Shown piece by piece: positions 1-18,764 of a stretch of 18,831 bases of DNA. The translations under genes and the position numbers were made by a program. Under the pieces are notes generated by a model. It searched no databases and had not been told where the DNA came from. It saw nothing but the letters and a program-made list of their open reading frames with translations. Source of the DNA: Candidatus Thorarchaeota archaeon (lineage in GTDB: Archaea > Asgardarchaeota > Thorarchaeia > Thorarchaeales > Thorarchaeaceae); contig JBHLQM010000046.1 in the NCBI GenBank assembly GCA_048884785.1, forward strand, positions 1 to 18,831. Direction: 5' to 3'. Position 1 is the stretch's first letter. Each line of letters starts with the position of its first letter.

Positions 1-1
1 T

Positions 2-378: not shown

Positions 379-426
379 TTTATCTACCTCATAGGATAGT
401 CCTCGGGAAACCTAAAGACCTCATAT

Positions 427-451
427 CTCGGCGATGCCGAGTTGAATTCAA
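427..451 (-). terminator. Hairpin CTCGGC-GAT-GCCGAG plus palindrome TTGAATTCAA just downstream of the 462-1370 gene
   Basis: Perfect 6-bp GC-rich stem at 427-441 and a 10-bp palindrome at 442-451 in the intergenic gap. The function is inferred from position. Confidence 0.3.
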
Positions 452-461
452 TGCAGTTCGA

Positions 462-1370: not shown

Positions 1371-1436
1371 CTCCCACTTACACTAAGGCTGTTTTGCATT
1401 TTATTCTGCGTATTCGAGCAGAGGTCTAATGTAGAG

Positions 1437-2609: not shown

Positions 2610-2611
2610 TA

Positions 2612-2735
2612 TTAGTATACTCCATATTTTTTAAATAGACTCCAAGCAATTTCGAGATTTCGGACGGCAATATCCAGCGGTTCCCAAGGCCACTCACAAC
2701 CTGCGGCAAACATGTATCTGAACCAGGTTGCTTTC
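2612..2735 (-). pseudogene. C-terminal remnant of a second URO-D/MtaA-family methyltransferase gene
   Basis: The - strand frame reads …RYMFAAGCEWPWEPLDIAVRNLEIAWSLFKKYGVY* (TAA 2612-2614), resembling the MtaA-type C-terminus (GCE…P..N….KYG.Y). The frame is closed upstream by TGA. Its stop lies 2 nt before the intact gene's ATG. Confidence 0.65.
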
Positions 2736-2774
2736 CAGTTGCTACAAAGAACCCCTAAATTGATGAAATGGGCT

Positions 2775-2845
2775 AAACCAGCTCATATACCCTCTGTAAA
2801 AAAAGAATATTAGCTGGTTTCAAGTTTCAGTATACCAACCAGCTA
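2775..2845. promoter_or_regulatory. Three alternating AACCAGCT boxes in the divergent UroD/corrinoid promoter
   Basis: AAACCAGCT 2775-2783, TAGCTGGTTT 2811-2820 and AACCAGCTA 2837-2845 form two 9-bp inverted-repeat pairs sharing the middle box. Confidence 0.5.
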
Positions 2846-2862
2846 GAGAGTGTTGATTGCAG

Positions 2863-3492
2863 ATGTCACTAGAAGAGATAACAAAGATGCTTGTTGATTT
2901 GGATGTTGACAACATCGCAGCAACTGCTCGACAGATTATTGATGGCGGTACTGATCCTCAAGAAGTCTTGAAAGCACTTACCACGGGAATGAATGAAGTG
3001 GGAAATAAGTATGAGCAGGGTGAGTATTTTCTCACAGAGCTGGTGCTTGCAGGTGAAACAATGAAAGAAGCTTTTGCAGTCATCAAGCCACGCCTTGCTC
3101 TAGATGAAACAGGAGCCAGAAAGCCTGTGGTGATTGCGACAGTAAAGGGCGATAATCACGATATCGGGAAGAACATTCTTGGCACTATGCTCATCTCTGC
3201 AGGATATGATGTCATTGATCTTGGAATAGATGTTTCAAAAGAAACGATTGTTGAAACAGTAAAGAAGCACAATGTGAAAGTAGTCGCTTTGAGCTGTCTG
3301 TTAACAATGACGATTAAAGAGATATCAGCAGTTAATGATGCATTGAGAGAGGCAGGCCTGAGAGACAAGGTTCGACTCATTGTTGGAGGTGCTCCTTTGA
3401 GCATGGAGCTTGCGAGAAATCTTGGAGCAGATGATTATGGTGCTGATGCAATTGATGGGGTGAAAAGAATAGGTGCGTTATTGGAGCGATAG
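2863..3492 (+). CDS. Methyltransferase-cognate corrinoid (B12-binding) protein, MttC/MtbC-like
   Basis: Cap domain (GMNEVGNKYEQGEYFLTEL) plus B12 motif GDNHDIGKN…SCLLT…IVGGAP. The start is ATG 2863 or TTG 2857. Confidence 0.93.
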   Translation: MSLEEITKMLVDLDVDNIAATARQIIDGGTDPQEVLKALTTGMNEVGNKYEQGEYFLTELVLAGETMKEAFAVIKPRLALDETGARKPVVIATVKGDNHDIGKNILGTMLISAGYDVIDLGIDVSKETIVETVKKHNVKVVALSCLLTMTIKEISAVNDALREAGLRDKVRLIVGGAPLSMELARNLGADDYGADAIDGVKRIGALLER

Positions 3493-3497
3493 ACCCT

Positions 3498-3758
3498 TTG
3501 GATGCATCCACATGTGTTCTAAAAGCTCTCAATCATGAGGAGCCAGACCGTGTACCATCATTTGAGACTACATTCACCAACAACACAATCATGGAGTACC
3601 ATGGAGTTCCTTCAAGAGAAATTGTCAGTGGAGTGGACTATTACGCAATCAGGATTGCTGTTGCACATGTCAGAACATCCTACATCGGACCTCTTTGGGT
3701 AGCAAGTCCCTGATTTCGCCATACTATCAGCGCAGTGCAGGAGATTTATCTGGAATAA
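3498..3758 (+). pseudogene. Truncated URO-D/MtaA-family gene (N-terminal stub, possibly with a degenerate C-terminal tail)
   Basis: Starts with the family signature VLKALNHEEPDRVP.FE but stops after 71 aa (TGA 3711-3713), whereas the family is ~350-390 aa. The in-frame tail FRHTISAVQEIYLE* loosely resembles the terminal helix. Confidence 0.7.
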
Positions 3759-3780
3759 CCAATAGATATTCTCAACGAGT

Positions 3781-4779
3781 ATGATAGATGATTGGTTGCA
3801 GACCGCACTTGAAGAAACATCCAAGCTCTATGGATTTCAAATTGACAAGCTTGTGAAACTCGCTGGTGGATTTGAAAACAAGATATTTGGATATGATTCT
3901 CCTAAGTCAAAGCTCGTAGTGCGTGTAACCCCACCAGGCCACAAGACCCCTGCTGAAGTACATGCCGAAATGGATTGGCTAGTCTATCTTCAGACAAATA
4001 GTGCTCCCGTTGAGCATGTGATCGCATCCAAGAATGAGAATCTTGTGGAAATAGCTGATACTGATGAAGGACCTATCTCCGTTGTCTGCTTTGAGTGGGC
4101 ATCGGGAAAACTAGTATCAAAAGATGACTTCTCTCCAGAGCTCTTTCGGTCTTGGGGAAAAGCCGTTGGTATGATGCATAGACTCACAAAAGACTACAAA
4201 CGAAAAACTCAGTCTAAGCGTATTCAGTGGTATGACGACAAGTACTTGAATCGAGATCTTATTCCATCAGACCAAGAACTAGTTCTTCAGAGATTTGATT
4301 CCCTCATTGACCACTTCAAGAAACAGACGCCTCTGGAAGATAATTTTGGTATGATTCACGAAGATGTGCACAATGGCAACTTATTGCTTGATGGAAACCA
4401 ACTGACAGTTCTCGATTTTGACGATTGTGTATATGGCTTCTTCATTTTCGATATAGCAAATGCGCTTGGGTTCTCAATCTGGCAGAAACCAGATGACATG
4501 AATAACAACCAGTTTGCAGAATTCTATTTGAAGCACTTCATGGCGGGTTATCATGAAGAGAATCAATTAGACCAGTCAATCATGGAAGAAGACTTTCCAA
4601 AAGCATTGAAACTCTTTGAATTCATCCACTATAATGCATTCAACATGGATTATGACCTTGCAGGTAGTGGTTCCTTTGACTCATTGAATAGCAAGACACA
4701 GCAGATTCTGAAGAGATATAGAGATAGTATCGAGAATGATCTTCCATACATTGAGAATACCTTCAATCCTTACACCTGA
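3781..4779 (+). CDS. Aminoglycoside phosphotransferase / choline kinase / type II homoserine kinase-like phosphotransferase
   Basis: GGFEN N-lobe motif, Brenner motif IHEDVHNGN, LDFDD and FDIA. Confidence 0.9.
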   Translation: MIDDWLQTALEETSKLYGFQIDKLVKLAGGFENKIFGYDSPKSKLVVRVTPPGHKTPAEVHAEMDWLVYLQTNSAPVEHVIASKNENLVEIADTDEGPISVVCFEWASGKLVSKDDFSPELFRSWGKAVGMMHRLTKDYKRKTQSKRIQWYDDKYLNRDLIPSDQELVLQRFDSLIDHFKKQTPLEDNFGMIHEDVHNGNLLLDGNQLTVLDFDDCVYGFFIFDIANALGFSIWQKPDDMNNNQFAEFYLKHFMAGYHEENQLDQSIMEEDFPKALKLFEFIHYNAFNMDYDLAGSGSFDSLNSKTQQILKRYRDSIENDLPYIENTFNPYT

Positions 4780-4829
4780 TGTAATTCCTCTAACTAACCA
4801 TTGAAAAGCATTAGAACGAATTTTCCGCT

Positions 4830-5354
4830 ATGGAAATTGCTACATTTGGAGCTGGTTGCTTCTGGTGTACAGAAGCTGTGTTTCAGCAGCTCAAGGGAGT
4901 CGAATCAGTGGTATCGGGCTATTCTGGAGGCCATGTTGACAATCCGACCTACAAACAAGTCACAACAGGCACTACTGGACATGCAGAGGTGACACAGATA
5001 TCCTTTGATCCTGAAATCATCGGCTTTGAAGAACTACTAGAGGTGTTTTTCACTACTCATGATCCGACAACCCTGAATCGACAGGGAAACGATGCTGGAA
5101 CTCAATATCGTTCAGTCGTTTTTTATCATAACGAGGAGCAACGGGAAATCGCTGATAGGATGAAATCAGAATTGAGTGAGAAAAGGGTCTGGAAGAATCC
5201 AATAGTTACTGAGATAGTCCCCTTAAAGAAATTCTATCCAGCTGAAGACTATCATCAGAATTACTATAGAAACAATCCCAATGAAGGCTATTGCCGTTTC
5301 GTAATCAAGCCTAAACTAGACAAGTTTGAGAAAACATTCAAACTCAAGCTTTAA
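4830..5354 (+). CDS. msrA: Peptide-methionine (S)-S-oxide reductase MsrA
   Basis: [32 protein letters not shown] and [12 protein letters not shown]…GYC. Confidence 0.98.
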
Positions 5355-5492
5355 TGACCTGATTTATACACCATAGTGATTAATTGCATTAATGACAGAT
5401 TCTATTCATCTAGCTCATGCAATTCATAGAGTCTTTCACAAGTCTAAATCAAATGAGCTAGTTCAAGACCTGAGCTGCTTGGGTGTGCTACA

Positions 5493-6299
5493 GTGTCAGA
5501 ACTGGAACCAGATCAACTGTATGTGTTCTGCAACATATGCAAGGAGAACGTCCCCATCGAGGTTGGTGAGAGTGAAATAGAGGCCTCCACTTCTGGTCTT
5601 ACCACCGTAATTTCAGTACATGGTTCCCCTCAGCATGCCATTCTCGTATATCTGGACAAGCAGATGAAAGCACGAGGTGTCGAGTATCCATCTGTCCTGC
5701 AAGTAGAGGGAGCCCCCACAGTAGATGGAGCAAGTGAGTTGCCAAAAGAAGAGGTTCTCTATGACCTCGAGTCCGTCATCAGTGCTTTCGGGGAAAAGGA
5801 AGAGTCTGCCATAAGAGCCTTTGTACAGATCATCTCACAGATTATAGTGCGAAATAATGTCTATCTTGTTCATAATAATAGAAGCATTGGGAAAGTGGTG
5901 AAAGGCCAACTTGATGCTCTATTTGCTGATCAGAAGACCTCTCTCGAGGTCATCAGCTACGATGAGATAGATGGTGTAGCTGGAATGCGACCCACGATCT
6001 TCGACCTTCAATATGGAACGTTCATCTCTGAGGGCATCAAGATTGAAACCGTCTACTTTGAGAATCTCGTTGAAGACGCCCTTTCCCACATCAACGGATT
6101 TAATCTGTTGAGAAATGAATTCAGCAAGCTCATGTTTTCATATAGAAGGCTCTGGGAACTGCTGACTAGCGGAGCGAAAAAATATACACAAAAGAGAATA
6201 GCTTACTTAGTTTCAATAGATCATGCTCTCATTCCATTGCTGCTTCAGATAGCAGAGAATGATGGAATCGATGTTAGCTCGAGAGTTGGAGAAGACTAG
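5493..6299 (+). CDS. Hypothetical protein with an N-terminal CxxC/His Zn-binding module, central alpha/beta domain and possible C-terminal HTH
   Basis: CNIC…HGSPQH…VYLD….RGVE N-terminal module. Clean 268-aa ORF. Confidence 0.75.
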   Translation: MSELEPDQLYVFCNICKENVPIEVGESEIEASTSGLTTVISVHGSPQHAILVYLDKQMKARGVEYPSVLQVEGAPTVDGASELPKEEVLYDLESVISAFGEKEESAIRAFVQIISQIIVRNNVYLVHNNRSIGKVVKGQLDALFADQKTSLEVISYDEIDGVAGMRPTIFDLQYGTFISEGIKIETVYFENLVEDALSHINGFNLLRNEFSKLMFSYRRLWELLTSGAKKYTQKRIAYLVSIDHALIPLLLQIAENDGIDVSSRVGED

Positions 6300-6411
6300 T
6301 GTTTCCCAAAACTGATTTCAGACTTTTAATTCTAGATGGGTAATTGAATTCTTTATGGTCACAAGGTTATGCGGATATGAAAGAAACAATTCCTCAATGA
6401 TTGGTCGAAAC

Positions 6412-6963
6412 CTAGGATGACACGATAGACTTAGCAGACGAGGGATTTAGTCTAAGCAGCTCTTCTGCATACTCTCTATTGCGAATTTGAAGAACCATCA
6501 TTCCAGCTCCTTCCGAACTGTCAAGAACCTTTATAGCTTTTTCAAGCTCACTAGGACCACCCACATAGCTGGTGATCATAATTCCAATTATGACTAGTGC
6601 AATAAGAAGAATAGTCATCAAATCCAGAACTCCAGTAAGAGCAAATGATCCCAAGAGGAACATCCCCAGAAAGAGAGCAAGGACTATGAGGAGACCGCTA
6701 CAAATACCACAGGGACCTCGCAGCCTTGCTGTTTCTTCGAAGGAAATAGCATGTCTTTCACATACTGGCACTGAGAATCTATGCATGCCTGTGCCATACC
6801 TCTTATCCATGCGGCTCATTGACCAGAAATGCCCACTTCCTGCAAATGAAGTATGACGCGTTGCAGCCTGTGCTGTTCCTCTATCAAGGGCAGACATGGC
6901 GGGGATAGTGCCTTCATCTTCTGCGGGCGCCCCACATACTGGACATCTACTCGGCAGATTCAC
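6412..6963 (-). CDS. Hypothetical membrane protein with split Zn-finger (CPVC…VPVCERH) and two TM helices
   Basis: LPSRCPVCG and PVCERH motifs plus two hydrophobic helices. The frame stays open upstream to CTG 7002 (LSRKYIIQITSSR), so the start may be earlier. Confidence 0.75.
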   Translation of the reverse strand: MNLPSRCPVCGAPAEDEGTIPAMSALDRGTAQAATRHTSFAGSGHFWSMSRMDKRYGTGMHRFSVPVCERHAISFEETARLRGPCGICSGLLIVLALFLGMFLLGSFALTGVLDLMTILLIALVIIGIMITSYVGGPSELEKAIKVLDSSEGAGMMVLQIRNREYAEELLRLNPSSAKSIVSS

Positions 6964-7125
6964 CCTACTTGAGGTGATCTGAATTATGTACTTTCTACTC
7001 AGCTTTACTCATCTCCACGATTCCGTTATTGCCTCTTTGTGCAATTCTTGGATATGAAAGGTTTTCTCTTTTCACAATGATATTCAGCTCAACCTCTCGT
7101 AGTGGCGCCTAGTTCCATTGACTAT

Positions 7126-7142
7126 ATCCATCATTGATGGAT
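7126..7142 (-). terminator. Inverted repeat ATCCATCA-T-TGATGGAT just downstream of copA
   Basis: Perfect 8-bp arms 10 nt past the copA stop. The role (terminator or binding site) is uncertain. Confidence 0.3.
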
Positions 7143-7152
7143 CTATGGCAAT

Positions 7153-9849
7153 TTACGGAATCGCGGGTTCAGTTGCGTTGTCTTCCTCGTACTGTTTAGG
7201 ATCTGCTTCAAAGGTTTCTTTACAATACTGATTGCAGAAGTAATAGCGCTTACCGTTGTAATCGCTATAGAGGTCAGCAGTAGCAATCTCTACCTTCATT
7301 TTGCATATAGGGTCAATAGCAACGTCTCCCTCTTGATAGGCTGCAATCGGCGTATCGACTAGTGGTTCAGAGTTTTTCTCTGTTTTGAAGCGGTTCAGAG
7401 TCAGAGCATTAGCAACAACGCTTACACTTGATAGCGCCATTGCAAGCCCTGCAAATTCAGGCCTCAAGACTAAACCAGCTGATGGGAATAAAAGCCCCGC
7501 AGCAATTGGTAAAAGCACAATATTATATATTAATGCCCAGAAGAACCCTTGTTTTATTTTGGACATTGTACGGCTGCCCAACTGAATTCCTGTGACTACA
7601 TCGAGTAGGTCATCCTTGACCAATACAATATCTCCTGTTTCAACTGAAACGTCGGTTCCTGATCCCAGAGCAATTCCTACATCTGCTTGTGCTAGAGCTA
7701 CTGCATCGTTTACACCATCACCGGCCATTGCTACAATTCGATTTTCACTCTGTAGCTCCTTGATTTTCTCAGCCTTATCAGCCGGTAGGACTTCTGCTAA
7801 TACTCTCTTAATACCAACAGTTTCTGCTATGGATAGAGCAGTTGCTTCTTTATCGCCTGTGATCATCCAAACCTCTATACCCATTTCCTTGAGTTTATCA
7901 ACAGCACGTATTGAGGAATCCTTGAGCTTGTCAGCAATTGCAATCAGTGCGAGCATGCGTCCATCAATAGCTGCAAAGACAGTCGTCTTTCCTTTCTCCT
8001 GTAACTTAATCCCTTGTGCTTCAGCATCAAGAATATCCACAGAATTTTCCCTCATGAACCTGTCATTGCCTATAATCACTAACTGGCCTTCGACTGAAGC
8101 TTGCACTCCTCTTCCTGTAGTTGAGATAAAGTCAGAAGCAGATGGGATTTCAATGTTAAGTTTCTCGGTGTATTGTACAATCGCTTCAGCAAGGGGATGT
8201 TCACTATTCTTTTCCACTGATGAGATAAGACGCAAAGCTTCTCCTTCACTGAAATCGTCATAGGTAATAATGTCTGTTACTGTTGGTTTTCCAATTGTGA
8301 GCGTCCCTGTTTTGTCAAATACCATAGTATCAACTGTTGGAATGACTTCAAGACCCTCACCAGCCTTTATCAAGATTCCATGTTGTGCACCTTTTCCAAT
8401 CCCAACCATTATCGCTGTTGGTGTGGCCAATCCCAAAGCGCAGGGACAGGCAGCTACAAGCACTGCAATGGTAAAGGTTAGAGATTGGGTCAATTCAACT
8501 GATAGGCCAGAAATTGGGGACACTATACCCAAGATTGGAGATATATAGTACCAAAAGATGAAAGTTGAAAGTGCTAAAACAATGACAATTGGTGTAAATC
8601 TGCTCGCAATTGCGTCTGCCTTCCGCTGAATCGGAGGTTTGTTTGTTTGGGCTTCTTCCACGAGTTTTACAATCTGAGAGAGTACTGTGTCCTTCCCAAC
8701 CTTTGTTGCCCTAACTTTTAACACACCATTCTTGTTGATGGTTGCACCTACCACTGTATCTCCTACGGTCTTCTTGACAGCTACGGGTTCTCCTGTGATC
8801 ATTGACTCATCAACACTTGACTTGCCGTCTATGACTTCACCATCTACTGGAACTTTATCACCGGGTCTTATGAGAACGATATCTCCAACCTCCACATCCT
8901 CAATTGGGAGGAGTAGTTCCTCACCATCTCGGATTATTGTGGCTACTTTCGCTTGAAGATCCATCAACTTTCTCATTGCTTTCGATGTACGACCTTTGGC
9001 GATTGCTTCGAGGGTTCTACCAAGTAGTAGGAAACTGATTAGTAGAACTGCTGAATCATAAAAAGGCATGTATTCATTCCACTGAGGGACGAATGTAGTA
9101 ACAACTGAATAGGTGTAAGCAGCACTTGTGCCCAACATTATGAGGGTGTCCATGTTTGTCGTGAAGTGTCGTGCGGCTTTCAATGCAGACTTAAAAAATG
9201 GATATCCTGCAATAAACTGAACCGGCGTTGCAAGAAGGAACATGGCAAGCTTACTAATTTCTTCAGATGGGAAGAGTGGTGCAAGGACTCCGAAGTGTAT
9301 TAAAACAACAGGTATTGACAGAATGACTGAGAAGGCAAGAAGGAGAGAATAAAAACGAATTTCTTTCTCTCGAGCTAAGGATTCTCGATCTGCTTCAATA
9401 CCTTCAGCTTGCTCGACTGCAATTCCAATTTTCTCAAGTATCTTTTTAACAGATTTGTATGTGACCAGATCATCATCATATTCTATCAAAGTACGATTTG
9501 TATCTTTAAATGCAGTAGCAGTTATGACACCATCTTCATCTTCTAGCGTCGCAATAATTTTATCCCAATCTAGAGTGGATGATGATTCACTGAGAGTTAG
9601 GGTCATAGTAGGTCTTCGTGCTCGATACCCTGTAGACGCTACAGCTTTCTCCAAGGTTGTTCTATCAACAGTATGAGTCTTGTATTCGATTACAGCCTTT
9701 TCATCGAGTAGGCTAACATTGGCTCGAATAACTCCTTCTTGACTTGTTAAGGCATTCTCTATTTTGGCAACGCAGGATGCACAATGCATCCCTTCAATAC
9801 GCATCGACATTCTAGATGCAGTGACTTCAGTTTCAGCTTTTTGACTCAT
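7153..9849 (-). CDS. copA: Cu(I)-translocating P1B-1 ATPase with N-terminal HMA, a degenerate second HMA and a C-terminal YHS/TRASH domain
   Basis: [36 protein letters not shown] and MALSS motifs. C-terminal DPICKM…YYFCNQYC. The start is placed at ATG 9849 behind a GGTGG SD, because the longer ORF runs over the operator and padR. Confidence 0.96.
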
Positions 9850-9880
9850 TTCTGTCCACCGTAATTGCAATTCAATACAA

Positions 9881-9913
9881 TGTCTTTTCCGATATATCGG
9901 ACACGATATATAA
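9881..9913 (-). promoter_or_regulatory. Operator 1 (TGTC-N6-GATATATC-N6-GATA) overlapping the copA TATA box and predicted TSS
   Basis: Core at 9891-9898 within palindrome TCCGATATATCGGA (9888-9901). TTATATA lies on the - strand at 9913-9907. Confidence 0.85.
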
Positions 9914-9956
9914 GATTTGTGATTGGACCAATTATGATAGGAAACCATTTTGACAA

Positions 9957-10439
9957 TTATAGACTCTGTTTGAACGCTTTCGCACAATGAACACAGCAAA
10001 AAGCAAGATTTGATCCATTTACTTCTTCATGGTGCGCGCCTTCGAAGATCCTAGCTCCACAACTTGCACATACCTCAAGACTGGACCCGAGGGCAGATAC
10101 AGTAATCGCAGCAAAACGTTTGAATAACTGGCCGCTAAATTGCTCTCCCTTCTTCGTCAATGAATACACAATCTTACGTTTCTTCCCTACGTCTTCATGC
10201 TTCTGGGTGACTATCTTCTTTTCTTCGAGTTCCTGCAAAAATGGATAGAGTGTTCCTGGACTTAATTTCCTCCCGGTTCGTTTTTCATATCTTTTCATAA
10301 GACCATAACCATGCAATGGCTTTTCGTTCAACATCAACAGGATATAGAAATGCGAGAAATCAGCCAGTATCTCATGAATCTCAGGATTGGGTATTTTCAA
10401 GTCTTGATTTGCTTTTTCATTTGTCATCTTTTGTGTCAT
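9957..10439 (-). CDS. PadR-family transcriptional regulator fused to a C-terminal TRASH-type metal-binding domain
   Basis: PadR wHTH ([17 protein letters not shown]…SPGTLYP.L.ELE…[11 protein letters not shown]) plus CASCG…LAFCCVHC. The likely start is ATG 10439 or 10427. Confidence 0.9.
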
Positions 10440-10612
10440 CCCATTGAAGCTCGAATGTGTTGAGTCACACGGATAAGGAATGAAGGCGTTCCCGCGTGTT
10501 ACATTTAGCCCATTCTGCAAAGCAGTTTCCTATAATAGTTGCCTATTTGACTAGGCTATTCCCGATTGTCCTTAGAAATGAACCACATTCTAAGATATCT
10601 AGACGAGTAGCA

Positions 10613-10649
10613 ATATAAATGTATCTTAAGGGATATATCCATAGGGATA
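10613..10649 (-). promoter_or_regulatory. Operator 2 (perfect TATC-N6-GATATATC-N6-GATA, 10622-10649) abutting the padR TATA box, consistent with autoregulation
   Basis: TTTATAT on the - strand at 10619-10613, 2 nt from the operator. Confidence 0.85.
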
Positions 10650-10682
10650 ATTAATATGAAACTACCCGGAATCCCACAGGAA

Positions 10683-10709
10683 ATGATTCAGCCATAAATT
10701 CTGAATCAT
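10683..10709 (-). terminator. Hairpin ATGATTCAG-N9-CTGAATCAT downstream of copZ
   Basis: Perfect 9-bp inverted repeat ~65 nt after the copZ stop. Confidence 0.4.
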
Positions 10710-10772
10710 CCAGTCAGAATTTTAAGAGCACTCAACAATGGTAAAGGGTACTTGTCAATTACTTTTCCTCTT

Positions 10773-11009
10773 CTATGCTACAACGATATATCCAAGGGAT
10801 TCTATGACATCTACAAGAAGCTCTCTATCGATTATATCGTCTTCGATTTCAACAACAGCCTCGGCTTTCTGAAGACTTACTTCAGCGCCTTTTACTCCGT
10901 CCTCACAAAGAAGGACATTTTTAATTCTGTCTGCACATGCGGGGCAATCCATGCCATTGATCTTGAAAAATATGTGTTTAGTTTCTTTCTCAATTACGTG
11001 ATCACTCAT
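10773..11009 (-). CDS. copZ: HMA-domain copper chaperone (CopZ/Atx1-like), 78 aa
   Basis: FKINGMDCPAC…GV..AEVSL…IESLGY. ATG 11009 is chosen because the upstream extension is the operator. Confidence 0.9.
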   Translation of the reverse strand: MSDHVIEKETKHIFFKINGMDCPACADRIKNVLLCEDGVKGAEVSLQKAEAVVEIEDDIIDRELLVDVIESLGYIVVA

Positions 11010-11020
11010 TTTGTATAAAC

Positions 11021-11048
11021 TATCAAATAGGATATATCGTTTTAGATA
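11021..11048 (-). promoter_or_regulatory. Operator 3 (perfect consensus) immediately upstream of copZ
   Basis: TATC-AAATAG-GATATATC-GTTTTA-GATA. Confidence 0.85.
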
Positions 11049-11239
11049 TATTTTTTTGGTTGACGACGCGGATAATAGCACGATAAGAAATCGTTCTGAA
11101 GATATCCTCAAGGTGTTAGCCTTTCAACTCTGAGTAAGATATGAGATTGCTCAAATATGAGATAACAAACTGAGTTTCCTGTCAGTGTTAGAAATGGATC
11201 TCAAATAAGAAAAGGAAATATAAAGCAGAAGACAGAACG

Positions 11240-11304
11240 TTTATATATATCTAGTGGGATATATCTGAATGGATAATATTGTTTTCGATATATCTGAATG
11301 GAAA
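11240..11304 (+). promoter_or_regulatory. TATA box (TTTATATA 11240-11247) followed by tandem operators 4 and 5 for the YHS-lonC-nif3 operon
   Basis: TATC-TAGTGG-GATATATC-TGAATG-GATA (11248-11275) and TATT-GTTTTC-GATATATC-TGAATG-GAAA (11277-11304). They contain the 16-bp direct repeat GATATATCTGAATGGA. Confidence 0.85.
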
Positions 11305-11327
11305 TACAAAAGGCAGAGGCAAAGGAA

Positions 11328-11483
11328 ATGGCTAGAGATCCAATATGTGGAATGATAGTGGATGAGAACACAACCAGGCTAAAGACGGTTCATAAAGGTG
11401 AAACTTTCTACTTTTGTATGAGGAGCTGCAAGAAAGCCTTTGACAGTGATCCAGATCGCTTTGCCATCGAATCTACAAATTAA
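11328..11483 (+). CDS. Stand-alone YHS/TRASH metal-binding protein (YHS-1, 51 aa)
   Basis: MARDPICGM.V…GETFYFCMRSCKKAFDSDPDRF. The start is placed at ATG 11328 because ATG 11298 lies inside the operator. Confidence 0.9.
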   Translation: MARDPICGMIVDENTTRLKTVHKGETFYFCMRSCKKAFDSDPDRFAIESTN

Positions 11484-11504
11484 TGATAGAACAGGAGAAC
11501 ATCG

Positions 11505-13961
11505 ATGAAGAAGCTGACATCAGAGGAAATTCGGGTTCGTTGTGATGATAGAGAGTTTGCATGCAGAACTAGTGCGGAGCTTTTTCCCCTAGATAATATC
11601 GTTGGACAGAAACGTGCTCTTGAATCATTGAGAATCGGACTAATGATAAAGGATAAGGGATTCAATGTCTTTGTTGCCGGTATTCCAGGAACTGGTCGCA
11701 CAACTGCAGTTTCAAAATTCCTTCAAAATCTTGCAACAAAAGAATCTAATGCATCAGATTGGTGCTACGTATCCAATTTCGAGGATCAATATTACCCAAG
11801 GGCACTTGAGCTTCCATCAAGCAGAGGGTGGCAATTGGAGCAGCAAATGGAGAGCTTCATTGAACTTGCTCAATTGACGCTTTCTGAGATGCTGGAAAGT
11901 GAGGAATATATTACACAAAGAGAGGAGCTTCTGAGGGTCTTCAAAGACAAACAGCAGGAAATAAGCAATCAAATGGAAGATGAAGCACGAAAAAGCGGGT
12001 TCGTATTGCAGGGTTCTAAGACTCGACTACTCTTACTACCACTAATCAATGGTGAGCCTCTCAATCCTGAAGCAAACACTCATCTGCCCAAGGAAATCCA
12101 AGACAAAATCGCAGAAAATCGCAAAGTCGTGGAAAAACAAATACGAGTGCTTTTCCGCAAGTTACGTCTTATTGAACATGAACTTCGTGAGGCTCTTCAG
12201 AATAAGGAGCGAGAAGCCGTGCTTTACGCCCTCTCTCCACTTATTGATGACCTTAAGGAGAAGTTCAGGGATTTGCCAAGGGTTACACAATGGATTGAGG
12301 AAGTAGCTGAGGATATCACCGAACATCTTCAGGAATTTATCGGACTCTCAGAAGTTGGTTCATCAGATGAGCTGAATTCATCGCAAGCGGGATCAATCCC
12401 ACGGGAAGATTTCACTGACAGATATAAAGTAAATATGTTTGTTGATAACTTGGGAGAAGATGGCGCGCCAGTTGTAATCCTTGCAAATCCTTCTTATAGC
12501 AATCTATTTGGCGTTATTGAGAAAGAACCACGATATGGCGGACTTAGAACAGACTTTTCTATGATCCGCCCAGGAGCCCTTCATAAGGCAAATGGTGGAT
12601 ATCTAGTGGTTCCTGCAATGGAACTTCTAACATCTCCACATGTATATCAATCTTTGAAGAGAGCACTTGAACATAGTGAGATAGTCATCGAGGCCCCTCA
12701 GGAATCAAGCAACTTCCTTGCTGTGAAGAGTTTACGTCCTGAACCAATCCCATTGGACGTAAAAGTAATTCTAATTGGTGAGGAAGAGATTTACCGAGAG
12801 CTTTACAATAAGGACCCCGAGTTTCGTCAACTTTTCAAGATAAAGGCGGAATTTGATATTTCGATGGATCGCACGCTTGAAAACATCCAGGTATTTGGCT
12901 CGTTCATTTGTATGATTCATACAAAGGAAGGTCTGAGACCTTTGAAGGCAGAAGCCATAGCAGAAGTAATCGATCATAGCTCTCGTCTAGCAGAAAGCCA
13001 AAACAAGCTCTCTATAAGATTCGACATAATAACTGACATCATTCGCGAAGCAAACTTCTATGCCAGCGAAGAAAAAAGCGTTACGATAGAAAGATATCAT
13101 ATCAAAAAGGCCATCAGTCAAAGATTATACCGATTGAATCTTTACTCCGAGAAGGTTCGTGAGCTTATTAAGAAGAATATCATTTTTATGGATCTTGATG
13201 GAGAGGCTGTAGGACAGGTAAATGGACTTTCGGTGGTCACTCTCGCAGGTCATGCTTTTGGACAAGCATCTCGAGTTTCAGCTAGTGTATCGCCAGGACA
13301 CCAGGTTGTGATAGATATTGAACGTGAATCAAATCTTGGTGGTCCGATTCATACAAAAGGAGTACTCATACTTGGGGGATATCTTGCTAATCGATATGGA
13401 AGAGAAAAACCACTTAGCCTTTCTGCGCGGGTTGTTTTTGAGCAGAGTTATGGAGGCGTTGAGGGAGATAGTGCAAGTAGCACGGAACTGTTTGCGATTT
13501 TATCTGCTCTTTCAGGCGTACCTATCCAACAGAGATTTGCTGTAACTGGCTCCGTCGATCAACATGGAAGAATACAGGCTGTGGGAGGAATTAATGAAAA
13601 GATTGAAGGATTTTACGAACTTTGCAAAGCAAAAGGTTTGACAGGGCAGCAGGGAGTCTTGATACCAAAAGCCAATATTCAGAATTTAATGTTATCAGAT
13701 GAAGTAGTTGAAGCTGTCAGAGCAGATTCATTTCACATTTATGCAATAGATAGTGTGGATGAAGGCATTGAATTCTTAACTGGTGTACCAGCAGGTACAA
13801 GTCAAGAGAATGGCAGCTATTTGCCAGGATCAATTAATGCATTGGTGGATGAGACTCTGGTTCGAATGGCTAGAATCATGGAAAAGCATTATTCTACTGA
13901 AAATTACAACAAACAAGAAATCTCTGCTACACCACAACAAGTGACTTTCTCTGGAGCCTGA
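11505..13961 (+). CDS. lonC: Lon-like S16 protease of the LonC / AAA_32 type
   Basis: GQKRA, atypical Walker A GIPGTGRT, DWCYV.NF, a long coiled-coil insert, I.PGALHKANGGYL, GQVNGLSV, catalytic FEQSYGGVEGDSAS and GGINEKIEGF. Confidence 0.92.
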   Translation: MKKLTSEEIRVRCDDREFACRTSAELFPLDNIVGQKRALESLRIGLMIKDKGFNVFVAGIPGTGRTTAVSKFLQNLATKESNASDWCYVSNFEDQYYPRALELPSSRGWQLEQQMESFIELAQLTLSEMLESEEYITQREELLRVFKDKQQEISNQMEDEARKSGFVLQGSKTRLLLLPLINGEPLNPEANTHLPKEIQDKIAENRKVVEKQIRVLFRKLRLIEHELREALQNKEREAVLYALSPLIDDLKEKFRDLPRVTQWIEEVAEDITEHLQEFIGLSEVGSSDELNSSQAGSIPREDFTDRYKVNMFVDNLGEDGAPVVILANPSYSNLFGVIEKEPRYGGLRTDFSMIRPGALHKANGGYLVVPAMELLTSPHVYQSLKRALEHSEIVIEAPQESSNFLAVKSLRPEPIPLDVKVILIGEEEIYRELYNKDPEFRQLFKIKAEFDISMDRTLENIQVFGSFICMIHTKEGLRPLKAEAIAEVIDHSSRLAESQNKLSIRFDIITDIIREANFYASEEKSVTIERYHIKKAISQRLYRLNLYSEKVRELIKKNIIFMDLDGEAVGQVNGLSVVTLAGHAFGQASRVSASVSPGHQVVIDIERESNLGGPIHTKGVLILGGYLANRYGREKPLSLSARVVFEQSYGGVEGDSASSTELFAILSALSGVPIQQRFAVTGSVDQHGRIQAVGGINEKIEGFYELCKAKGLTGQQGVLIPKANIQNLMLSDEVVEAVRADSFHIYAIDSVDEGIEFLTGVPAGTSQENGSYLPGSINALVDETLVRMARIMEKHYSTENYNKQEISATPQQVTFSGA

Positions 13962-14860
13962 TGAATATGACTAAGCAAAATATCATCAGCAAGGATCTGG
14001 AGGGATTAAACAAATCTATTTCCTTTAGAACAATGATAGCCCCATTAGAATCTCAGAGTATAAAGTCAGAAGTAGTACAATCTGAGCACATGATAGATTC
14101 CGACATGATCATCGAGTTTCTAGAAAATCGTACATACTTGCCTGAGTTTGATTATATCGGTTATGAAGTAAAAACTGTTGATCGTGTTAACGCAATATAC
14201 TTGATGATAAATCCAGATCCATTGAATCTCAATTATGTACCAAAAAACAGTCTAGTTATTTGTCATCACAAAATTTCGACACACAATAATCGTTTCTACG
14301 AAAAAATGCTTGACCACGCAAGAGATACAAACTTCAACATTTACAATTTCCATCTTGGGTGGGATATTATGGAGGGTGGAATCATAGATTCATTTCTATT
14401 TGACTTCGGATTATCTCATAACGATTTTGAAAGAGTTGATCTTACATATCGAGATTATCTAATTCCTCAACTAGGAACTATATTCAAAAAAAGAATACCA
14501 ATGAGGGACATAATCAATGGACTTCACATGATGAATGTCCGGCCATCAATTATCATTAACCCACAATGCAAGGTATCCAAGATTGGATATATACCTGGTG
14601 GGGGTTTTGTTGATGATATGGTCATAGGGATGGCGGATTTAGGTGTCGATGTCCTCATTTCATCAGACCATAATTGGGTTGTTGAAACTATTGCTAGAGA
14701 GGCGGGTATGACCCTAATTGAAATTGACCATTATCGCAGTGAACGTCATGGTTTACGAACAATGAAGAAACTTCTTGAGAACTCATTTTCAAAGAGTTCC
14801 ATCAATATCCTAGAGAATGTTGATGGAATGCAACAAGCCCCTTGCGATTGTAATTCTTGA
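13961..14860 (+). CDS. NIF3/YbgI-like dinuclear metal-centre protein (divergent, short form)
   Basis: LVICHH, IYNFHLGWD, KIGYIPGGG, DVLISSD and IEIDHYRSE metal-ligand motifs. TGATG overlap with the lon stop. Confidence 0.85.
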   Translation: MNMTKQNIISKDLEGLNKSISFRTMIAPLESQSIKSEVVQSEHMIDSDMIIEFLENRTYLPEFDYIGYEVKTVDRVNAIYLMINPDPLNLNYVPKNSLVICHHKISTHNNRFYEKMLDHARDTNFNIYNFHLGWDIMEGGIIDSFLFDFGLSHNDFERVDLTYRDYLIPQLGTIFKKRIPMRDIINGLHMMNVRPSIIINPQCKVSKIGYIPGGGFVDDMVIGMADLGVDVLISSDHNWVVETIAREAGMTLIEIDHYRSERHGLRTMKKLLENSFSKSSINILENVDGMQQAPCDCNS

Positions 14861-14972
14861 GGAATGATCATTCAAGAAGAACTATTGTTCGTATGAATTT
14901 TATGTTACATAGCAAAGTCTTGTTGCATGCTGGCTCGAGCGCCCCACTTCTATGACCGTATCTTCAATTCAC

Positions 14973-15878
14973 TTATTTTTGATCCATCTTTGATTGAACT
15001 CTCTTGGCCCGAACAATCTTTACATTAACAACAATGTGGCTAGGGTTGGAACGTTCTTGAATCTTGGTTTTAATGTAATAGAGTGAAATCAAAGAGAGAT
15101 ATCCAACATATGCGATGACCTCAAGGGCTGAAGGATTCCCATTGTAACCGAATAGAGCTTTTGCGAGTCCACCAATAAGACCCTTCTCATGTAGAAGTGG
15201 ATAGCTGCCATCTGGTAATAACGGAGGATTGATGTTCCAAAGTTCAATTGGACCTAATGCTAAGAGACCTACTTCTTGAAGCTCATGAATACCATAGGCG
15301 AGCATTCCAGCGGCAAATAGTACCAAGAGGAAAGAAGTTGAGTTGAAGAATGATTTCAGACTGATTCGCAATGAGCCTAGATAGATTCCAAATCCGACAA
15401 AGACTGCGAAAATCAACCCCAAAGCCGTTGCGATGAAAGTCGTATATCCTTCTTGAATTGCTAGTGCAGCTGTGAACAAGACTAACTCAACACCCTCCCG
15501 CAAAACAAGGGCAAAAGCAAGAATAGGTAGGCCGAGATTTCCTCCCACAGCCCTCTCCTCAACCGATTGTTTGATCCCTGTGGATAGGTTTGTACTCGCC
15601 TTTCTCATCCAGAATATCATAGAAGTCAAGAGAATTGCTGCAAATAACACAACTGACCCCTCAAAGACCTCCAGCATTGGTCCTTCAAATGACCCCCAAA
15701 TCACCGCCAGTACAAAAGCTAATCCGACACTTGTGACTATTGCAAGTAAAGTGCCGCTGATGATGCTGCGATTCATATTCTCTCTGCCAGTCTTGCGAAG
15801 ATAAGAGAACATTATTGCAATGACAAGGGCAGCTTCAATACCCTCACGCAGTGCAACAATGAATGGTGCAATGACCAT
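14973..15878 (-). CDS. FTR1/EfeU-family iron (or lead) permease
   Basis: Two REGxE motifs (LREGIEA, LREGVEL), ~7 TM helices and GIHELQE…LFGY. Confidence 0.93.
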   Translation of the reverse strand: MVIAPFIVALREGIEAALVIAIMFSYLRKTGRENMNRSIISGTLLAIVTSVGLAFVLAVIWGSFEGPMLEVFEGSVVLFAAILLTSMIFWMRKASTNLSTGIKQSVEERAVGGNLGLPILAFALVLREGVELVLFTAALAIQEGYTTFIATALGLIFAVFVGFGIYLGSLRISLKSFFNSTSFLLVLFAAGMLAYGIHELQEVGLLALGPIELWNINPPLLPDGSYPLLHEKGLIGGLAKALFGYNGNPSALEVIAYVGYLSLISLYYIKTKIQERSNPSHIVVNVKIVRAKRVQSKMDQK

Positions 15879-16036
15879 TATAGAATCCTCCCATCAATGA
15901 TTAATTCTTCTCCTCTGGCAGAGATTCTATTCGGAGAGTGCCACATTACACACTGTCTTTGGTGCTTCTCTGGTCTACGGACAAACGATCTGGAAGGCTC
16001 ATTGATCTCCTTCTTCAGATCCACAACTCTGCCCAT
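15878..16036 (-). CDS. Small 52-aa ORF coupled between the ubiquitin-like gene and FTR1 (unknown function or remnant)
   Basis: The GGAGGAGGT Gly codons of the upstream gene sit at SD distance from ATG 16036. Its TAA overlaps the FTR1 ATG (TAATG). Confidence 0.5.
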   Translation of the reverse strand: MGRVVDLKKEINEPSRSFVRRPEKHQRQCVMWHSPNRISARGEELIIDGRIL

Positions 16037-16040
16037 GAGT

Positions 16041-16361
16041 TCAACCTCCTCCTGTAGCAATCATAAACACAATTGTGTCACCTTCATTGAGTATTCTATT
16101 CATTGTTTCTTTTGAATCGAGGCCCATTTTTAGTTTCCAACCTGTTATGATTATTTTACCATTAACTATGATGATTGTTTCATTACTGAGGGTTTGGTTT
16201 TTCTTCTCATCTAGATACACGTCCAATGAATCACCAAACACACTCATCAAGTGACCAATCAGATCAGTGAGCGAAGTTCCTTCTTGAATATGAAATGGAA
16301 ATTTGTTGTAGTTTGATTCTTTAAGACCCCTATTCAACAGCTTGATGAAAACTTGAATCAT
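16041..16361 (-). CDS. Ubiquitin-like MoaD/ThiS/SAMP-family protein (106 aa, C-terminal GGG)
   Basis: Beta-grasp pattern MIQVFIKL…EGTSLTDLI..L…IIIVNG…LNEGDTIVFMIATGGG*. GGAGG SD before ATG 16361. Confidence 0.88.
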   Translation of the reverse strand: MIQVFIKLLNRGLKESNYNKFPFHIQEGTSLTDLIGHLMSVFGDSLDVYLDEKKNQTLSNETIIIVNGKIIITGWKLKMGLDSKETMNRILNEGDTIVFMIATGGG

Positions 16362-16464
16362 TGAGTTTTCCTCCTTTGATGGTTTTTGTCTAGAATACAA
16401 CTCTGGCATGTAGAAAATACTCGAGTGTGTCATTCCGCAGAATTCCTTCTTTGATATGCATCTC

Positions 16465-16647
16465 TTAACCACAGCAGCCTCGTCGGGGCATTGATACTGC
16501 TTTACGCTGTGAATAGAAATACGGGGAATCATCAAACCTTGTTTTGCATGACTGCTTGCAGAAATAGTATCTCTTTCCCATATAGTCAGAATAAAACTCT
16601 GTTAGGTTTTCGTCAACCTCTAATCCACAAACTGGATCTTTTCCCAT
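16465..16647 (-). CDS. Stand-alone YHS/TRASH protein with C-terminal GCCG tail (YHS-2, 60 aa)
   Basis: MGKDPVCGLEV…GKRYYFCKQSCKTRFDDSP…RRGCCG*. AGGTGA SD at 16655-16660. Confidence 0.9.
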   Translation of the reverse strand: MGKDPVCGLEVDENLTEFYSDYMGKRYYFCKQSCKTRFDDSPYFYSQRKAVSMPRRGCCG

Positions 16648-16761
16648 TGTTATATCACCTTCAGTTCCAGTTCTACTCTTGTGCCTTCAATACTCAAAAT
16701 CTTGGTGAACGAGTATTGCCATCCAATAGGCCAATTGTTCACCAAATCTCTTGATTATATA

Positions 16762-16846
16762 TTACCACAAGGATATATCGGAACTGTATTATTATGACAC
16801 ACTTCACTATATAAATATATCGTACAGGATATATCCTTTGTGGATA
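16762..16846 (-). promoter_or_regulatory. Operators 6 and 7 flanking the TATA box (TTTATATA, - strand 16815-16808) of the YHS-2/Ubl/FTR1 operon
   Basis: GATATATC cores at 16772-16779 and 16828-16835, 56 bp apart, with degenerate outer half-sites. Confidence 0.8.
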
Positions 16847-16866
16847 TATAATGGTGTTTGTCATTC

Positions 16867-16904
16867 AAAAGAAAAAAAGAGTGGAGAAGTGGGAATCTTC
16901 TCCA
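16867..16904 (-). terminator. Hairpin plus U-tract terminator after YHS-3
   Basis: TGGAGAAG-N7-CTTCTCCA (16882-16904), followed on the - strand by TCTTTTTTTCTTTT. Confidence 0.65.
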
Positions 16905-16945
16905 GCCTATTTAAGAATTGTACAAGATTCCTTAGGCTAAGTTTT

Positions 16946-17098
16946 CTATTCTTTCATTCCCACTTCTAGGTTGAATTTCTCTGGATTGCTGTCAAACATC
17001 TTCTTATGTTCTGGATTCATAAAGTAGTATGCTTTTCCCTTGTAAACGGATTTGATATGGGATTTGCCCATCATTCCACAAACAGGACATTTTGCCAT
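16946..17098 (-). CDS. Third stand-alone YHS-like protein (YHS-3, 50 aa), not in the ORF track
   Basis: Hand translation: MAKCPVCGMMGKSHIKSVYKGKAYYFMNPEHKKMFDSNPEKFNLEVGMKE*. It has an AGGTGA SD and its own operator pair upstream. Confidence 0.88.
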   Translation of the reverse strand: MAKCPVCGMMGKSHIKSVYKGKAYYFMNPEHKKMFDSNPEKFNLEVGMKE

Positions 17099-17214
17099 TT
17101 TTTTCACCTATTTTCCCGATCGCATATTCCTATTGGATCGTTCATTCGACTCTCCAGAAACACTCCGAATAAATGGAGTAACGGAGGCTCCAACGAAACA
17201 TTCAATCATATTTA

Positions 17215-17297
17215 TATCCATAGAGATATATCGAGATTGATTTATAATTACATCATGATAATATAAATCTATCGTATTCGATATATCCAAGTAGATT
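17215..17297 (-). promoter_or_regulatory. Operators 8 and 9 flanking the TATA box (TTTATAT, - strand 17267-17261) of YHS-3
   Basis: TATC-CATAGA-GATATATC-GAGATT-GATT (17215-17242) and TATC-GTATTC-GATATATC-CAAGTA-GATT (17270-17297). The cores are 55 bp apart. Confidence 0.85.
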
Positions 17298-17495: not shown

Positions 17496-18764
17496 GTGTC
17501 AGAAGAAGTGCAGGTCTATGGCTATCGATGGGCAGTATTATTGGTATTTGGCCTAACCTTTATGATTGGGCAGATGATGTGGCTAGCTTTCTCGCTGATT
17601 CGAAACGAGGTTACACCAGTTCTTGGGCTTGCACCAGGAGACCCTGGGGTTGTCCTGTTGACGGCATCACAGCCATTGGCATTCATTCTTCTGTCAATAC
17701 CAGTTGGCATTTTAGCGGATAGGAAAGGGCTCGTATTTGTAGCAGGGCTAGGAGCTATTCTGCAGGCCTTGTTCGGGTCTCTGCGAATTGTCTTCATCAA
17801 CGACTTTCTTCTGATCTTTGTCTGCCAATTCGGTCTATCAATCGGTTCTGTTCTTGTCCAGAATTGCATTGTCTACTTGAGCGTGAATTGGTTTCCCAGG
17901 AATGAGCGTGCACTAGCTACCGGTGTTAGCACATTGTTCATGCTCTTAGGAATGCTATTGGGAACCGTATTGAGCATGCTTCTATGGACTGTGCCTCTCT
18001 ATGGCGAGCCCGGCTTTACGGTTGCATTGGCGGAAGGTAATGTTCTATCAGTTCTATATCTTGATGCAATCGTCGCGATTATACTCACAGTTCTCTTCTT
18101 TGCTGTTGCTAGAAATAAGCCTCCAAAGCCACCGGACGTCGAATTGATATCATCCACCAATCCAAGTATAAGGGGAATGCTCAAGGACAGAAGTGTTTGG
18201 GTCATATCTATTGGATTCTTCGCGGGCTTTGGCATCTTTATCGGACTTACAGCAATACTGGAGGAACTCCTCTTGAGCCTTGGACTACCAGTCGCGGCAG
18301 GTCTCGGAAGTCCAGCTATCGTGATGATTCTTCTTCTGGTTGCTGGTATAATTGGTGCAGTTCTAGTTCCTGCTGCATCCGAGAAAGTCCAGAAACGAAA
18401 ACCATTCATCATCATATGTTTGGCAATAGCATCAGTGGCAGTTCTGATTCTAGGAACATCGTCTATTCTTGAGCTGACCTTCATCATGTCAGCAATCCTG
18501 GGATTCTTCCTGATTGCGGTGATGCCACTAGGCCTTTCAATATTGGAGGAACTGGACTCTGTAGGACCAGAACTATCAGGCGCAAGCACAGGAGTGGCAT
18601 TCTGGTTCGGAAATCTTGGCGGTTTCACTGGATCATTGATTCTGGAAGTATTGAGGGTTGGAGAGTCATATCTCTACTCAATCCTGTATCTCTTCATTGG
18701 CATAGGGATTGCCACAGTCCTGATGACATTGCTTCCTGAAACGGGAGGACGGAAAGAAACCTAG
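17496..18764 (+). CDS. Major facilitator superfamily transporter (12 TM)
   Basis: YRWAVL N-terminus, motif A GILADRKG, WFPRNERALATG and a second-half repeat SEKVQKRKP. Confidence 0.92.
   Translation: MSEEVQVYGYRWAVLLVFGLTFMIGQMMWLAFSLIRNEVTPVLGLAPGDPGVVLLTASQPLAFILLSIPVGILADRKGLVFVAGLGAILQALFGSLRIVFINDFLLIFVCQFGLSIGSVLVQNCIVYLSVNWFPRNERALATGVSTLFMLLGMLLGTVLSMLLWTVPLYGEPGFTVALAEGNVLSVLYLDAIVAIILTVLFFAVARNKPPKPPDVELISSTNPSIRGMLKDRSVWVISIGFFAGFGIFIGLTAILEELLLSLGLPVAAGLGSPAIVMILLLVAGIIGAVLVPAASEKVQKRKPFIIICLAIASVAVLILGTSSILELTFIMSAILGFFLIAVMPLGLSILEELDSVGPELSGASTGVAFWFGNLGGFTGSLILEVLRVGESYLYSILYLFIGIGIATVLMTLLPETGGRKET

Follow-up and report, generated by a model that had tools for sequence, protein, structure and literature searches.

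The stretch of DNA analysed here (18,831 nucleotides from a Candidatus Thorarchaeota archaeon; hereafter the window) makes up the initial 18.8 kb of contig C46 (29 kb) in an assembly (G000) of 3.6 Mb, 158 contigs and 43.7 % G+C. It carries an island of predicted metal-handling genes, including a copA-like ATPase and a copZ-like metallochaperone, with a sole regulator gene, whose product joins a PadR winged helix to a C-terminal TRASH-like module (PadR-TRASH). The subject of this report is a recurrent palindromic element of the island, TATC-N6-GATATATC-N6-GATA (the 28-mer), a candidate operator of this regulator. The original prediction, made from the letters of the window, was that nine such palindromes mark every promoter of the locus, and this appears to hold in the sense that each upstream intergenic region of the island contains at least one site.

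Candidate operator sites and genes of the island

The core GATATATC occurs 10 times in the window (at 9891, 10632, 10785, 11031, 11258, 11287, 16772, 16828, 17225 and 17280), against a mean of 0.42 and a maximum of 3 in 200 dinucleotide-preserving shuffles, with which the earlier rough figure of about 0.5 per window agrees. All copies lie within 9.9-17.3 kb and, as had been remarked before, none lies in positions 1-9880; the first 9.8 kb, encoding MsrA, a kinase-like protein and others, is devoid of sites. The nine core coordinates given originally are all exact, and a tenth copy, at 10785, had been overlooked. This lone core (10785-10792) was rejected as a site, as it falls within the 3′ end of the HMA (copZ-like) coding sequence, bears no TATC/GATA flanks, and belongs to a gene absent from the syntenic islands of two relatives (G087 and G140); it is probably a chance occurrence.

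A scan for the 28-mer allowing at most three mismatches over its 16 defined positions returned 12 matches in the window, where 0.15 were expected. Three are perfect (10622, 11021 and 11248), three carry one mismatch (9881, 17215 and 17270) and one carries two (11277), such that seven of the nine palindromes originally proposed fit with two mismatches or fewer, while those at 16772 and 16828 are variants. The right half-site of the 16828 site is displaced by one base (N7), and at 16772 the flanks TTAC and GTAT replace TATC and GATA, a variant kept unchanged in G087 and G140. The sites are listed below with scores from a position weight matrix (PWM) trained on 61 sites from relatives only, with G000 excluded, and applied at a threshold of 16 bits with the reversed matrix as control.

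9881-9922: array upstream of the copA-like ATPase gene; 28-mer at 9881-9908 with core 9891-9898, and a third degenerate unit ending in the TATA-like GATATATAAG; 31.8 bits
10622-10649: site upstream of padR-TRASH; perfect 28-mer with core 10632-10639, 193 nt from the ATG, with AATATAAATG abutting on the left; 34.5 bits
11021-11062: array upstream of the HMA (copZ-like) gene; perfect 28-mer with core 11031-11038, and a degenerate third unit/A+T box; 36.6 bits
11248-11304: double operator upstream of YHS-LonC-NIF3; 28-mers at 11248-11275 and 11277-11304 with cores 11258 and 11287, preceded by TTTATATA; 33.4 and 24.8 bits
16762-16789: variant site upstream of YHS2-unknown-FTR1 (minus strand); exact core 16772-16779 with TTAC/GTAT flanks; below the PWM threshold
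16818-16846: shifted site; core 16828-16835, preceded by TATATAAATA; 17.7 bits; conserved in G087 and G140
17215-17242: site upstream of YHS3 (minus strand); core 17225-17232, with the TATA-like ATTTATA overlapping the gene-proximal half-site; 32.8 bits; conserved
17270-17297: 28-mer with ATATAAAT in front of it and core 17280-17287, at a distance of 55 bp from the 17225 site; 35.4 bits

As this list illustrates, arrays can exceed 28 bp: 9909-9922 and 11049-11062 each add a degenerate third unit of 14 bp. The two 28-mers of the double operator are separated by 1 bp, and the resulting 29-bp core offset recurs at three other surveyed loci (L003, L004 and L005), and about four periods separate the cores in the pairs 16772/16828 (56 bp) and 17225/17280 (55 bp). 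In G087 and G140 the site upstream of the ATPase gene keeps its distance of 41-42 nt to the ATG of that gene, the 11031 core lies 21 nt from the HMA ATG, and orthologous loci carry an identical or near-identical site some 190-200 nt from the regulator start. The 17280 site is conserved in relatives and the sequence downstream of it is not; this site may serve the MFS transporter gene or act jointly with the 17225 site. The earlier statement that the sites fall outside coding regions stands for all nine if copA starts at the ATG at 9849, but the longest frame, from a TTG at 9999, would overlap the 9891 site. Small leaderless open reading frames (ORFs) beginning 16 nt past the cores at 10632, 16828 and 17280 (13, 39 and 25 aa) were considered and rejected, being conserved in neither G087 nor G140.

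The genes of the island, with domains assigned by Pfam, are as follows.

7153-9849, minus: P1B-type ATPase, copA-like, with an N-terminal HMA domain and a C-terminal YHS domain
9957-10439, minus: PadR-TRASH regulator gene, 160 aa, PF03551 with a C-terminal TRASH-like module
10773-11009, minus: HMA metallochaperone, copZ-like, carrying the lone core at 10785
11328-14860, plus: YHS1 (11328-11483), Lon-like AAA protease (11505-13961) and NIF3 (13961-14860)
14973-16647, minus: YHS2 (16465-16647), a protein of unknown function, a small ORF and an FTR1 permease (14973-15878), in conserved synteny
16946-17098, minus: YHS3, a 50-aa YHS-domain protein
17562-18764, plus: MFS transporter, part of the island

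The ATPase gene starts 108 bp downstream of the regulator stop, and its product bears CPC at residue 468, YNIVLLP (YNxxxxP) at 775 and MALSS (M(x2)SS) at 804. In the established classification, CPC, YN(x4)P and M(x2)SS form the signature of the Cu(I)/Ag(I)-transporting P1B-1 group. The order YHS1-Lon-NIF3 after the double operator is the same in G087 and G140, and the YHS2 and YHS3 regions resemble a tandem duplication. The unknown gene that follows YHS2 matches no Pfam family. Its longest frame (16041-16535) overlaps YHS2 by 70 bp, but the true start is probably internal, since relatives have a 130-aa version.

Genome-wide specificity and anatomy of the site

The bare 8-mer GATATATC is not enriched in the genome (109 found, about 84 expected), and specificity lies only in the composite motif. 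The exact 28-mer occurs four times in 3.6 Mb, namely the three perfect copies in the window and one at C4:16512. At 16 bits or more the relatives-only PWM returns nine matches, each next to metal genes: eight belong to the island and the ninth is at C4:16522. The reversed PWM returns none in the same 3.6 Mb at 12 bits or more. A motif common genome-wide regardless of metal genes, which would have told against the original prediction, is thus not what was found, and the sites are supported as putative operators rather than chance occurrences.

The sole high-scoring site outside the window (C4:16512-16539; positions 3013-3040 of locus L062) lies between a gene for a Ras-family small GTPase and a YHS-domain gene, which is followed by an MFS transporter gene, an arrangement that parallels the 17280 site with its MFS gene. 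The first YHS repeat of the C4 gene looks truncated at the position of the operator and TATA-like box.

The anatomy of the site was read from 96 distinct core occurrences in a survey of 30 regulator loci with 1.5-kb flanks, the flanks being free of search bias. Positions -10 to -7 read T, A, T and C at 79, 71, 81 and 86 %, the adjoining N6 carries about 0 bits, and positions -13 to -11 read A-T-A. This unbiased recovery of TATC next to an information-free spacer bears out the earlier description of two abutting TATC-N6-GATA palindromes with a 14-bp period, as does a paralogue in G000 with TATC-N6-GATA units upstream at a 12-bp period (see below). The half-site spacing of 10 bp is compatible with a homodimer binding an inverted repeat, and the 28-mer would accordingly be expected to accommodate two dimers.

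Both outer half-sites are present at 68 of the 96 cores, and among these 68 sites the ATA extension is one-sided in 42, two-sided in 8 and absent from 18. An A/T run of at least 8 bp abuts an outer half-site at 59 of the 68 sites as opposed to 7 of 68 control windows, a control that is somewhat lenient because the run counts the TAT of the half-site itself. Together, the one-sided extension and the abutting A/T run point to a composite element in which a TATA-like box is fused to TATC-N6-GATATATC-N6-GATA. Most sites adjoin or overlap such a box, in one of two geometries. At copA, copZ and YHS1 the box is distal and precedes the operator, which then spans the expected start region; at padR, YHS2, YHS3 and the C4 site the box is on the gene side of the operator, leaving leaders of roughly 80-150 nt. 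A protein bound in either geometry would collide with TBP/TFB.

Non-coding leaders of about 110-190 nt (16648-16760, 17099-17214 and 10440-10621) separate the operators from the starts of YHS2, YHS3 and padR, and may represent a structured 5′ untranslated region or harbour a second promoter. The YHS2 leader is about 90 % identical over three genomes, equal to coding-level conservation. No Rfam family matches anywhere in the window, the long leaders included. A conserved hairpin at 16883-16903 (GGAGAAG-N7-CTTCTCC; region 16868-16903), followed by a minus-strand T-run, is probably the YHS3 terminator, and would account for the conservation of an apparent small plus-strand ORF (ATG at 16852).

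The PadR-TRASH regulator, its relatives and their sites

The regulator matches the PadR domain PF03551 at 60.3 bits (cut-off 27) over residues 33-100. TRASH-type families score just under the cut-off of 27 (PF11494, Ta0938, at 26.3 and PF24273 at 20.0), with precomputed matches on many homologues. Among 41 homologues sharing 39-91 % identity, five cysteines (C124, C127, C148, C149 and C152) never vary, and their arrangement, CxxC...CCxHC, fits the TRASH pattern. The AlphaFold2 model (mean confidence, pLDDT, 88) displays a PadR-s2 fold, in which a winged helix and a long helix (residues 96-120) are followed by a small β/α TRASH module, and its best structural matches in the Protein Data Bank (Foldseek) are LmrR, TA0346, Rv3488 and BC4206, with E-values of about 1e-5 and TM scores of about 0.7-0.8 on the target. 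No mention of a PadR-TRASH fusion was found in the literature searched, and the protein is most likely an undescribed Asgard metal sensor responding to Cu(I).

Homologues of PadR-TRASH are present in 95 of 301 genomes sampled across the phylum, and the closest ones carry the name Candidatus Thorarchaeota, as befits an uncultured Asgard archaeon. Exact cores occur within 1.5 kb of the orthologue at 24 of the 30 surveyed loci, usually some 200 bp ahead of the regulator gene and roughly 60 bp beyond its stop, where they precede the ATPase. In G087 and G140 the full island is preserved in the same order, the HMA gene being missing, with sites at the same places whose half-sites are identical while the spacers differ. 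In a motif survey of 78 genomes of the family, the 28-mer with at most one mismatch is found in 36, compared with 5 matches in total for the reversed pattern. A hand cross-count of the two surveys places the motif in 23 of 25 regulator-positive genomes of the family (78 sites) versus 10 of 46 regulator-negative ones (11 sites), which is to be read as a trend and not as a test, as the relatives cannot count as independent and many of the genomes are incomplete.

The association extends to distant orthologues (45-55 % identity) in other Asgard families, where GATATATC also lies beside the gene. Units there repeat every 14 bp in some families (f12) and every 15 bp (N7) in others (f13, f16, f19 and f24), the 15-bp core spacing being seen beside the PadR-TRASH gene at loci L050-L054 (G038, G058, G023, G041 and G213). 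A family with regulators of about 37 % identity has a different palindrome near the gene, resembling TATACT-N4-AGTATA. The original assignment of PadR-TRASH as the cognate factor gains from its being the only regulator gene of the island, from the motif at its orthologues within and beyond the family, and from the cross-count, and it appears sound.

PadR-TRASH is not alone in its genome, as G000 encodes at least five other PadR-like proteins. Directly upstream of one of them (C26:4547-4586; positions 2104-2143 of locus L064) are three overlapping ATATC-N6-GATAT units with a 12-bp period, which include a perfect 20-bp palindrome. The N-terminus of this 192-aa paralogue is rich in Cys and His (MCSSNPRTGKCFHHHG...), recalling Escherichia coli NfeR, and the protein may act as another metal sensor of the PadR type, with an operator to itself. 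A second paralogue, on C1, has two ATATC-N6-GATAT palindromes before its PadR domain; single matches to this pattern on C4, C23, C29, C41, C43, C57, C73 and C79 lie inside coding sequence and were set aside as chance. In three relatives (L035 at 2996-3023, L036 and L037, from G137, G093 and G140), the gene for a TRASH-less protein of 254-259 aa, which has a central PadR domain and is 33 % identical to NfeR, is preceded by a conserved perfect 28-mer that has extra units and a TGATATATCA core. This TGATATATCA-core site is present even in genomes where PadR-TRASH was not found, and for this reason the paralogues may cross-talk or share a recognition code.

The resemblance of the core to the operator of NfeR (YqjI), suggested earlier, is borne out in part. 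NfeR is a repressor of nfeF whose action is relieved by nickel (PMC7981267). In E. coli K-12, the 287 bp between nfeF and nfeR hold two of the chromosome's only four copies of AGATATATCT (at 3216517 and 3216747, 230 bp apart), and the core GATATATC is shared, but the E. coli boxes lack the 14-bp-phased flanks. In E. coli, ATATAT could be the spacer between outer half-sites rather than the junction of two units, and identical protein-DNA contacts are for that reason not implied. No quotation of the NfeR box sequence was found in the literature searched. The winged helices of NfeR and PadR-TRASH are 37 % identical over 73 aa (BLASTP, E 6e-11), and NfeR is not the closest bacterial PadR. The common core, together with the related palindromes of the paralogues, suggests a wider recognition code in this branch of the PadR family.

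Predicted mode of control and comparison with known systems

Upon the observed sites, with their specificity, conservation and linkage to the regulator gene, rests the reading preferred here, to which a probability of roughly 80 % is given: the GATATATC arrays would be operators of the neighbouring PadR-TRASH, most likely a Cu(I)-responsive protein, whose adjacent dimers occlude core promoters until released by Cu(I). From the geometry of the sites, the behaviour of PadR proteins and NfeR, and the logic of efflux systems, we infer the binding, its stoichiometry, the sign of regulation and the metal. The binding unit would be the 14-bp palindrome TATC-N6-GATA, whose half-site centres, one helical turn apart, fit a winged-helix dimer. 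Two to four units would abut head to tail, such that GATA and TATC fuse into GATATATC and adjacent dimers come to lie side by side. Dimers of the apo-protein would occupy adjacent palindromes, probably cooperatively and with successive dimers rotated by roughly 120 degrees, and would mask the TATA box, the B recognition element (BRE) and the start site, excluding TBP/TFB and RNA polymerase from the core promoter. Cu(I), and possibly Ag(I), would bind the TRASH cysteine cluster and lower DNA affinity or cooperativity, loosening or releasing the array. Induction of the copper pump, the chaperone, the three YHS proteins, the Lon-like/NIF3 and FTR1 genes and the MFS transporter would follow, and padR-TRASH would also be induced, as feedback on its own gene. 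Cu(I) is favoured as the effector on account of the Cu(I)-type ATPase motifs and the HMA and YHS genes.

Several points weigh against this account. Promoter geometry is uncertain at padR, YHS2 and YHS3 because these genes start 130-195 nt from their site, and some A/T boxes lie between operator and gene, an arrangement tied to activation by CopR in Pyrococcus furiosus (PMC7830388). Two regulator-positive genomes (G055 and G158) lack the 28-mer, and 10 regulator-negative genomes have one or two copies; because a paralogous PadR gene accounts for some of these, cross-binding by paralogues is conceivable. Related genomes are, moreover, non-independent samples. Finally, FTR1, NIF3 and Lon are not classic copper genes, and the metal may therefore differ or be broader.

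The most serious alternative, judged unlikely though deserving of attention, is that PadR-TRASH activates transcription in a copper-dependent manner, or plays a dual role, by changing its conformation while it remains bound to DNA, the mode put forward for CopR of P. furiosus and Saccharolobus. The TATA-like box between operator and gene at padR, YHS2, YHS3 and the C4 site would place the operator just upstream of BRE/TATA, where P. furiosus has its CopR motif (PMC7830388), and the paired sites 55-56 bp apart would suit wrapping or looping. At copA, copZ and YHS1, however, the operator covers the expected start site, which is the classic geometry of archaeal repression, and the known metal- or ligand-sensing PadR proteins, NfeR included, are ligand-relieved repressors (PMC7981267).

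A far less probable alternative would have another factor, such as one of the other PadR paralogues, bind the sites, with PadR-TRASH merely a member of the regulon. The five or more PadR-like genes elsewhere in G000, two of them with related palindromes upstream, lend this some plausibility, as does the full 28-mer before the TRASH-less 259-aa PadR in relatives, including those where PadR-TRASH was not found. Yet the paralogues of G000 have no GATATATC nearby and possess arrays of their own with a different period, whereas the motif adjoins the PadR-TRASH gene in several Asgard families and its presence tracks that gene. That the motif is no regulator site at all, but a peculiar kind of promoter or TATA box or the product of promoter-cassette duplication, is scarcely credible: the core does contain ATATAT and abut A/T boxes, and the YHS2 and YHS3 regions look duplicated, but palindromic 14-bp phasing plays no part in TBP/TFB recognition, a mere nine or so sites in 3.6 Mb argue against a general promoter element, and unrelated spacers between kept half-sites are the opposite of what duplication leaves.

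Measured against known systems, the predicted copper-released PadR-TRASH switch has its closest functional counterpart in the archaeal CopR/CopT regulators (P. furiosus PF0739, Thermococcus and Saccharolobus; PMC7830388), which share the C-terminal TRASH module and whose genes likewise neighbour copA and the gene of a small chaperone of the TRASH/YHS or HMA type. Further predicted likenesses are autoregulation and the presence of multiple sites at promoters induced by copper. The DNA-binding domain of CopR is, in contrast, an Lrp/AsnC helix-turn-helix and not a PadR winged helix; its semi-palindromic motif TTNNCAWWWTGNNAA has no match in the window; its octamer wraps about 150 bp, unlike the short phased 14-bp palindromes described here; and the present regulon adds Lon-like, NIF3, FTR1 and MFS genes.

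NfeR, the nickel-responsive repressor of nfeF (yqjH), has the PadR winged helix, a Cys/His metal extension and the 8-bp core in common with the Asgard system. Its metal module is an N-terminal Cys/His tail as opposed to a C-terminal TRASH, its boxes (identified from their letters only) are isolated 14-bp palindromes with no TATC/GATA at N6, and it works with a bacterial sigma-70 promoter. The PadR, LmrR and Rv3488-type (PadR-s2) proteins share the fold, dimer-type inverted-repeat operators over the promoter and ligand-relieved repression, but sense organic ligands at the dimer interface and have neither TRASH nor phased multi-dimer arrays. The Bacillus subtilis PadR-type operator, ATGT-N8-ACAT, is absent from the island, its one match in the window (at 5521) comparing with 0.47 expected by chance. 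Fur and DtxR-type operators likewise consist of abutting or overlapping short repeats, with side-by-side dimers on A/T-rich sites over the promoter, but these belong to an unrelated family of holo-repressors in which metal promotes binding, whereas release by metal is expected of an efflux regulon. The system thus appears to be a functional analogue of CopR-CopA-CopZ/CopT with a different DNA-binding scaffold and operator, on a scaffold related to NfeR with a different metal module.

To our knowledge, almost no transcription factors have been experimentally defined in Asgard archaea, and the island supplies a regulator together with a narrowly specified candidate operator (about 28 bp), a regulon confined to some nine sites per genome and a likely effector, copper. 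The pairing of PadR with TRASH, compared with Lrp and TRASH in CopR, would be a second, independent archaeal joining of TRASH to a DNA-binding domain. A bolder extension, which is considered improbable, is that an ancient metal-sensing PadR clade comprising bacterial NfeR and several Asgard paralogues shares a GATA/TATC code in which the array phase (12, 14 or 15 bp) sets specificity, and that Cu(I) on the TRASH modules of neighbouring dimers controls their cooperative side-by-side polymerisation over the TATA box rather than the affinity of a single dimer. Were this true, a clade-wide phase code with copper-controlled polymerisation would be an undescribed mode of control of archaeal, eukaryote-type promoters.

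The predicted metal switch also places the Lon-like AAA protease, NIF3, the small unknown protein and the FTR1 permease in a setting that yields hypotheses on their function. The predicted regulon is larger in one relative, G134, whose metal island of about 27 kb (contig C16, 5.8-32.4 kb; loci L031-L032) has 10 sites and two PadR-TRASH genes. Also encoded there are a second P-type ATPase, an ABC ATPase fused to YHS, a permease of the MacB/FtsX type and a small MarR-like protein.

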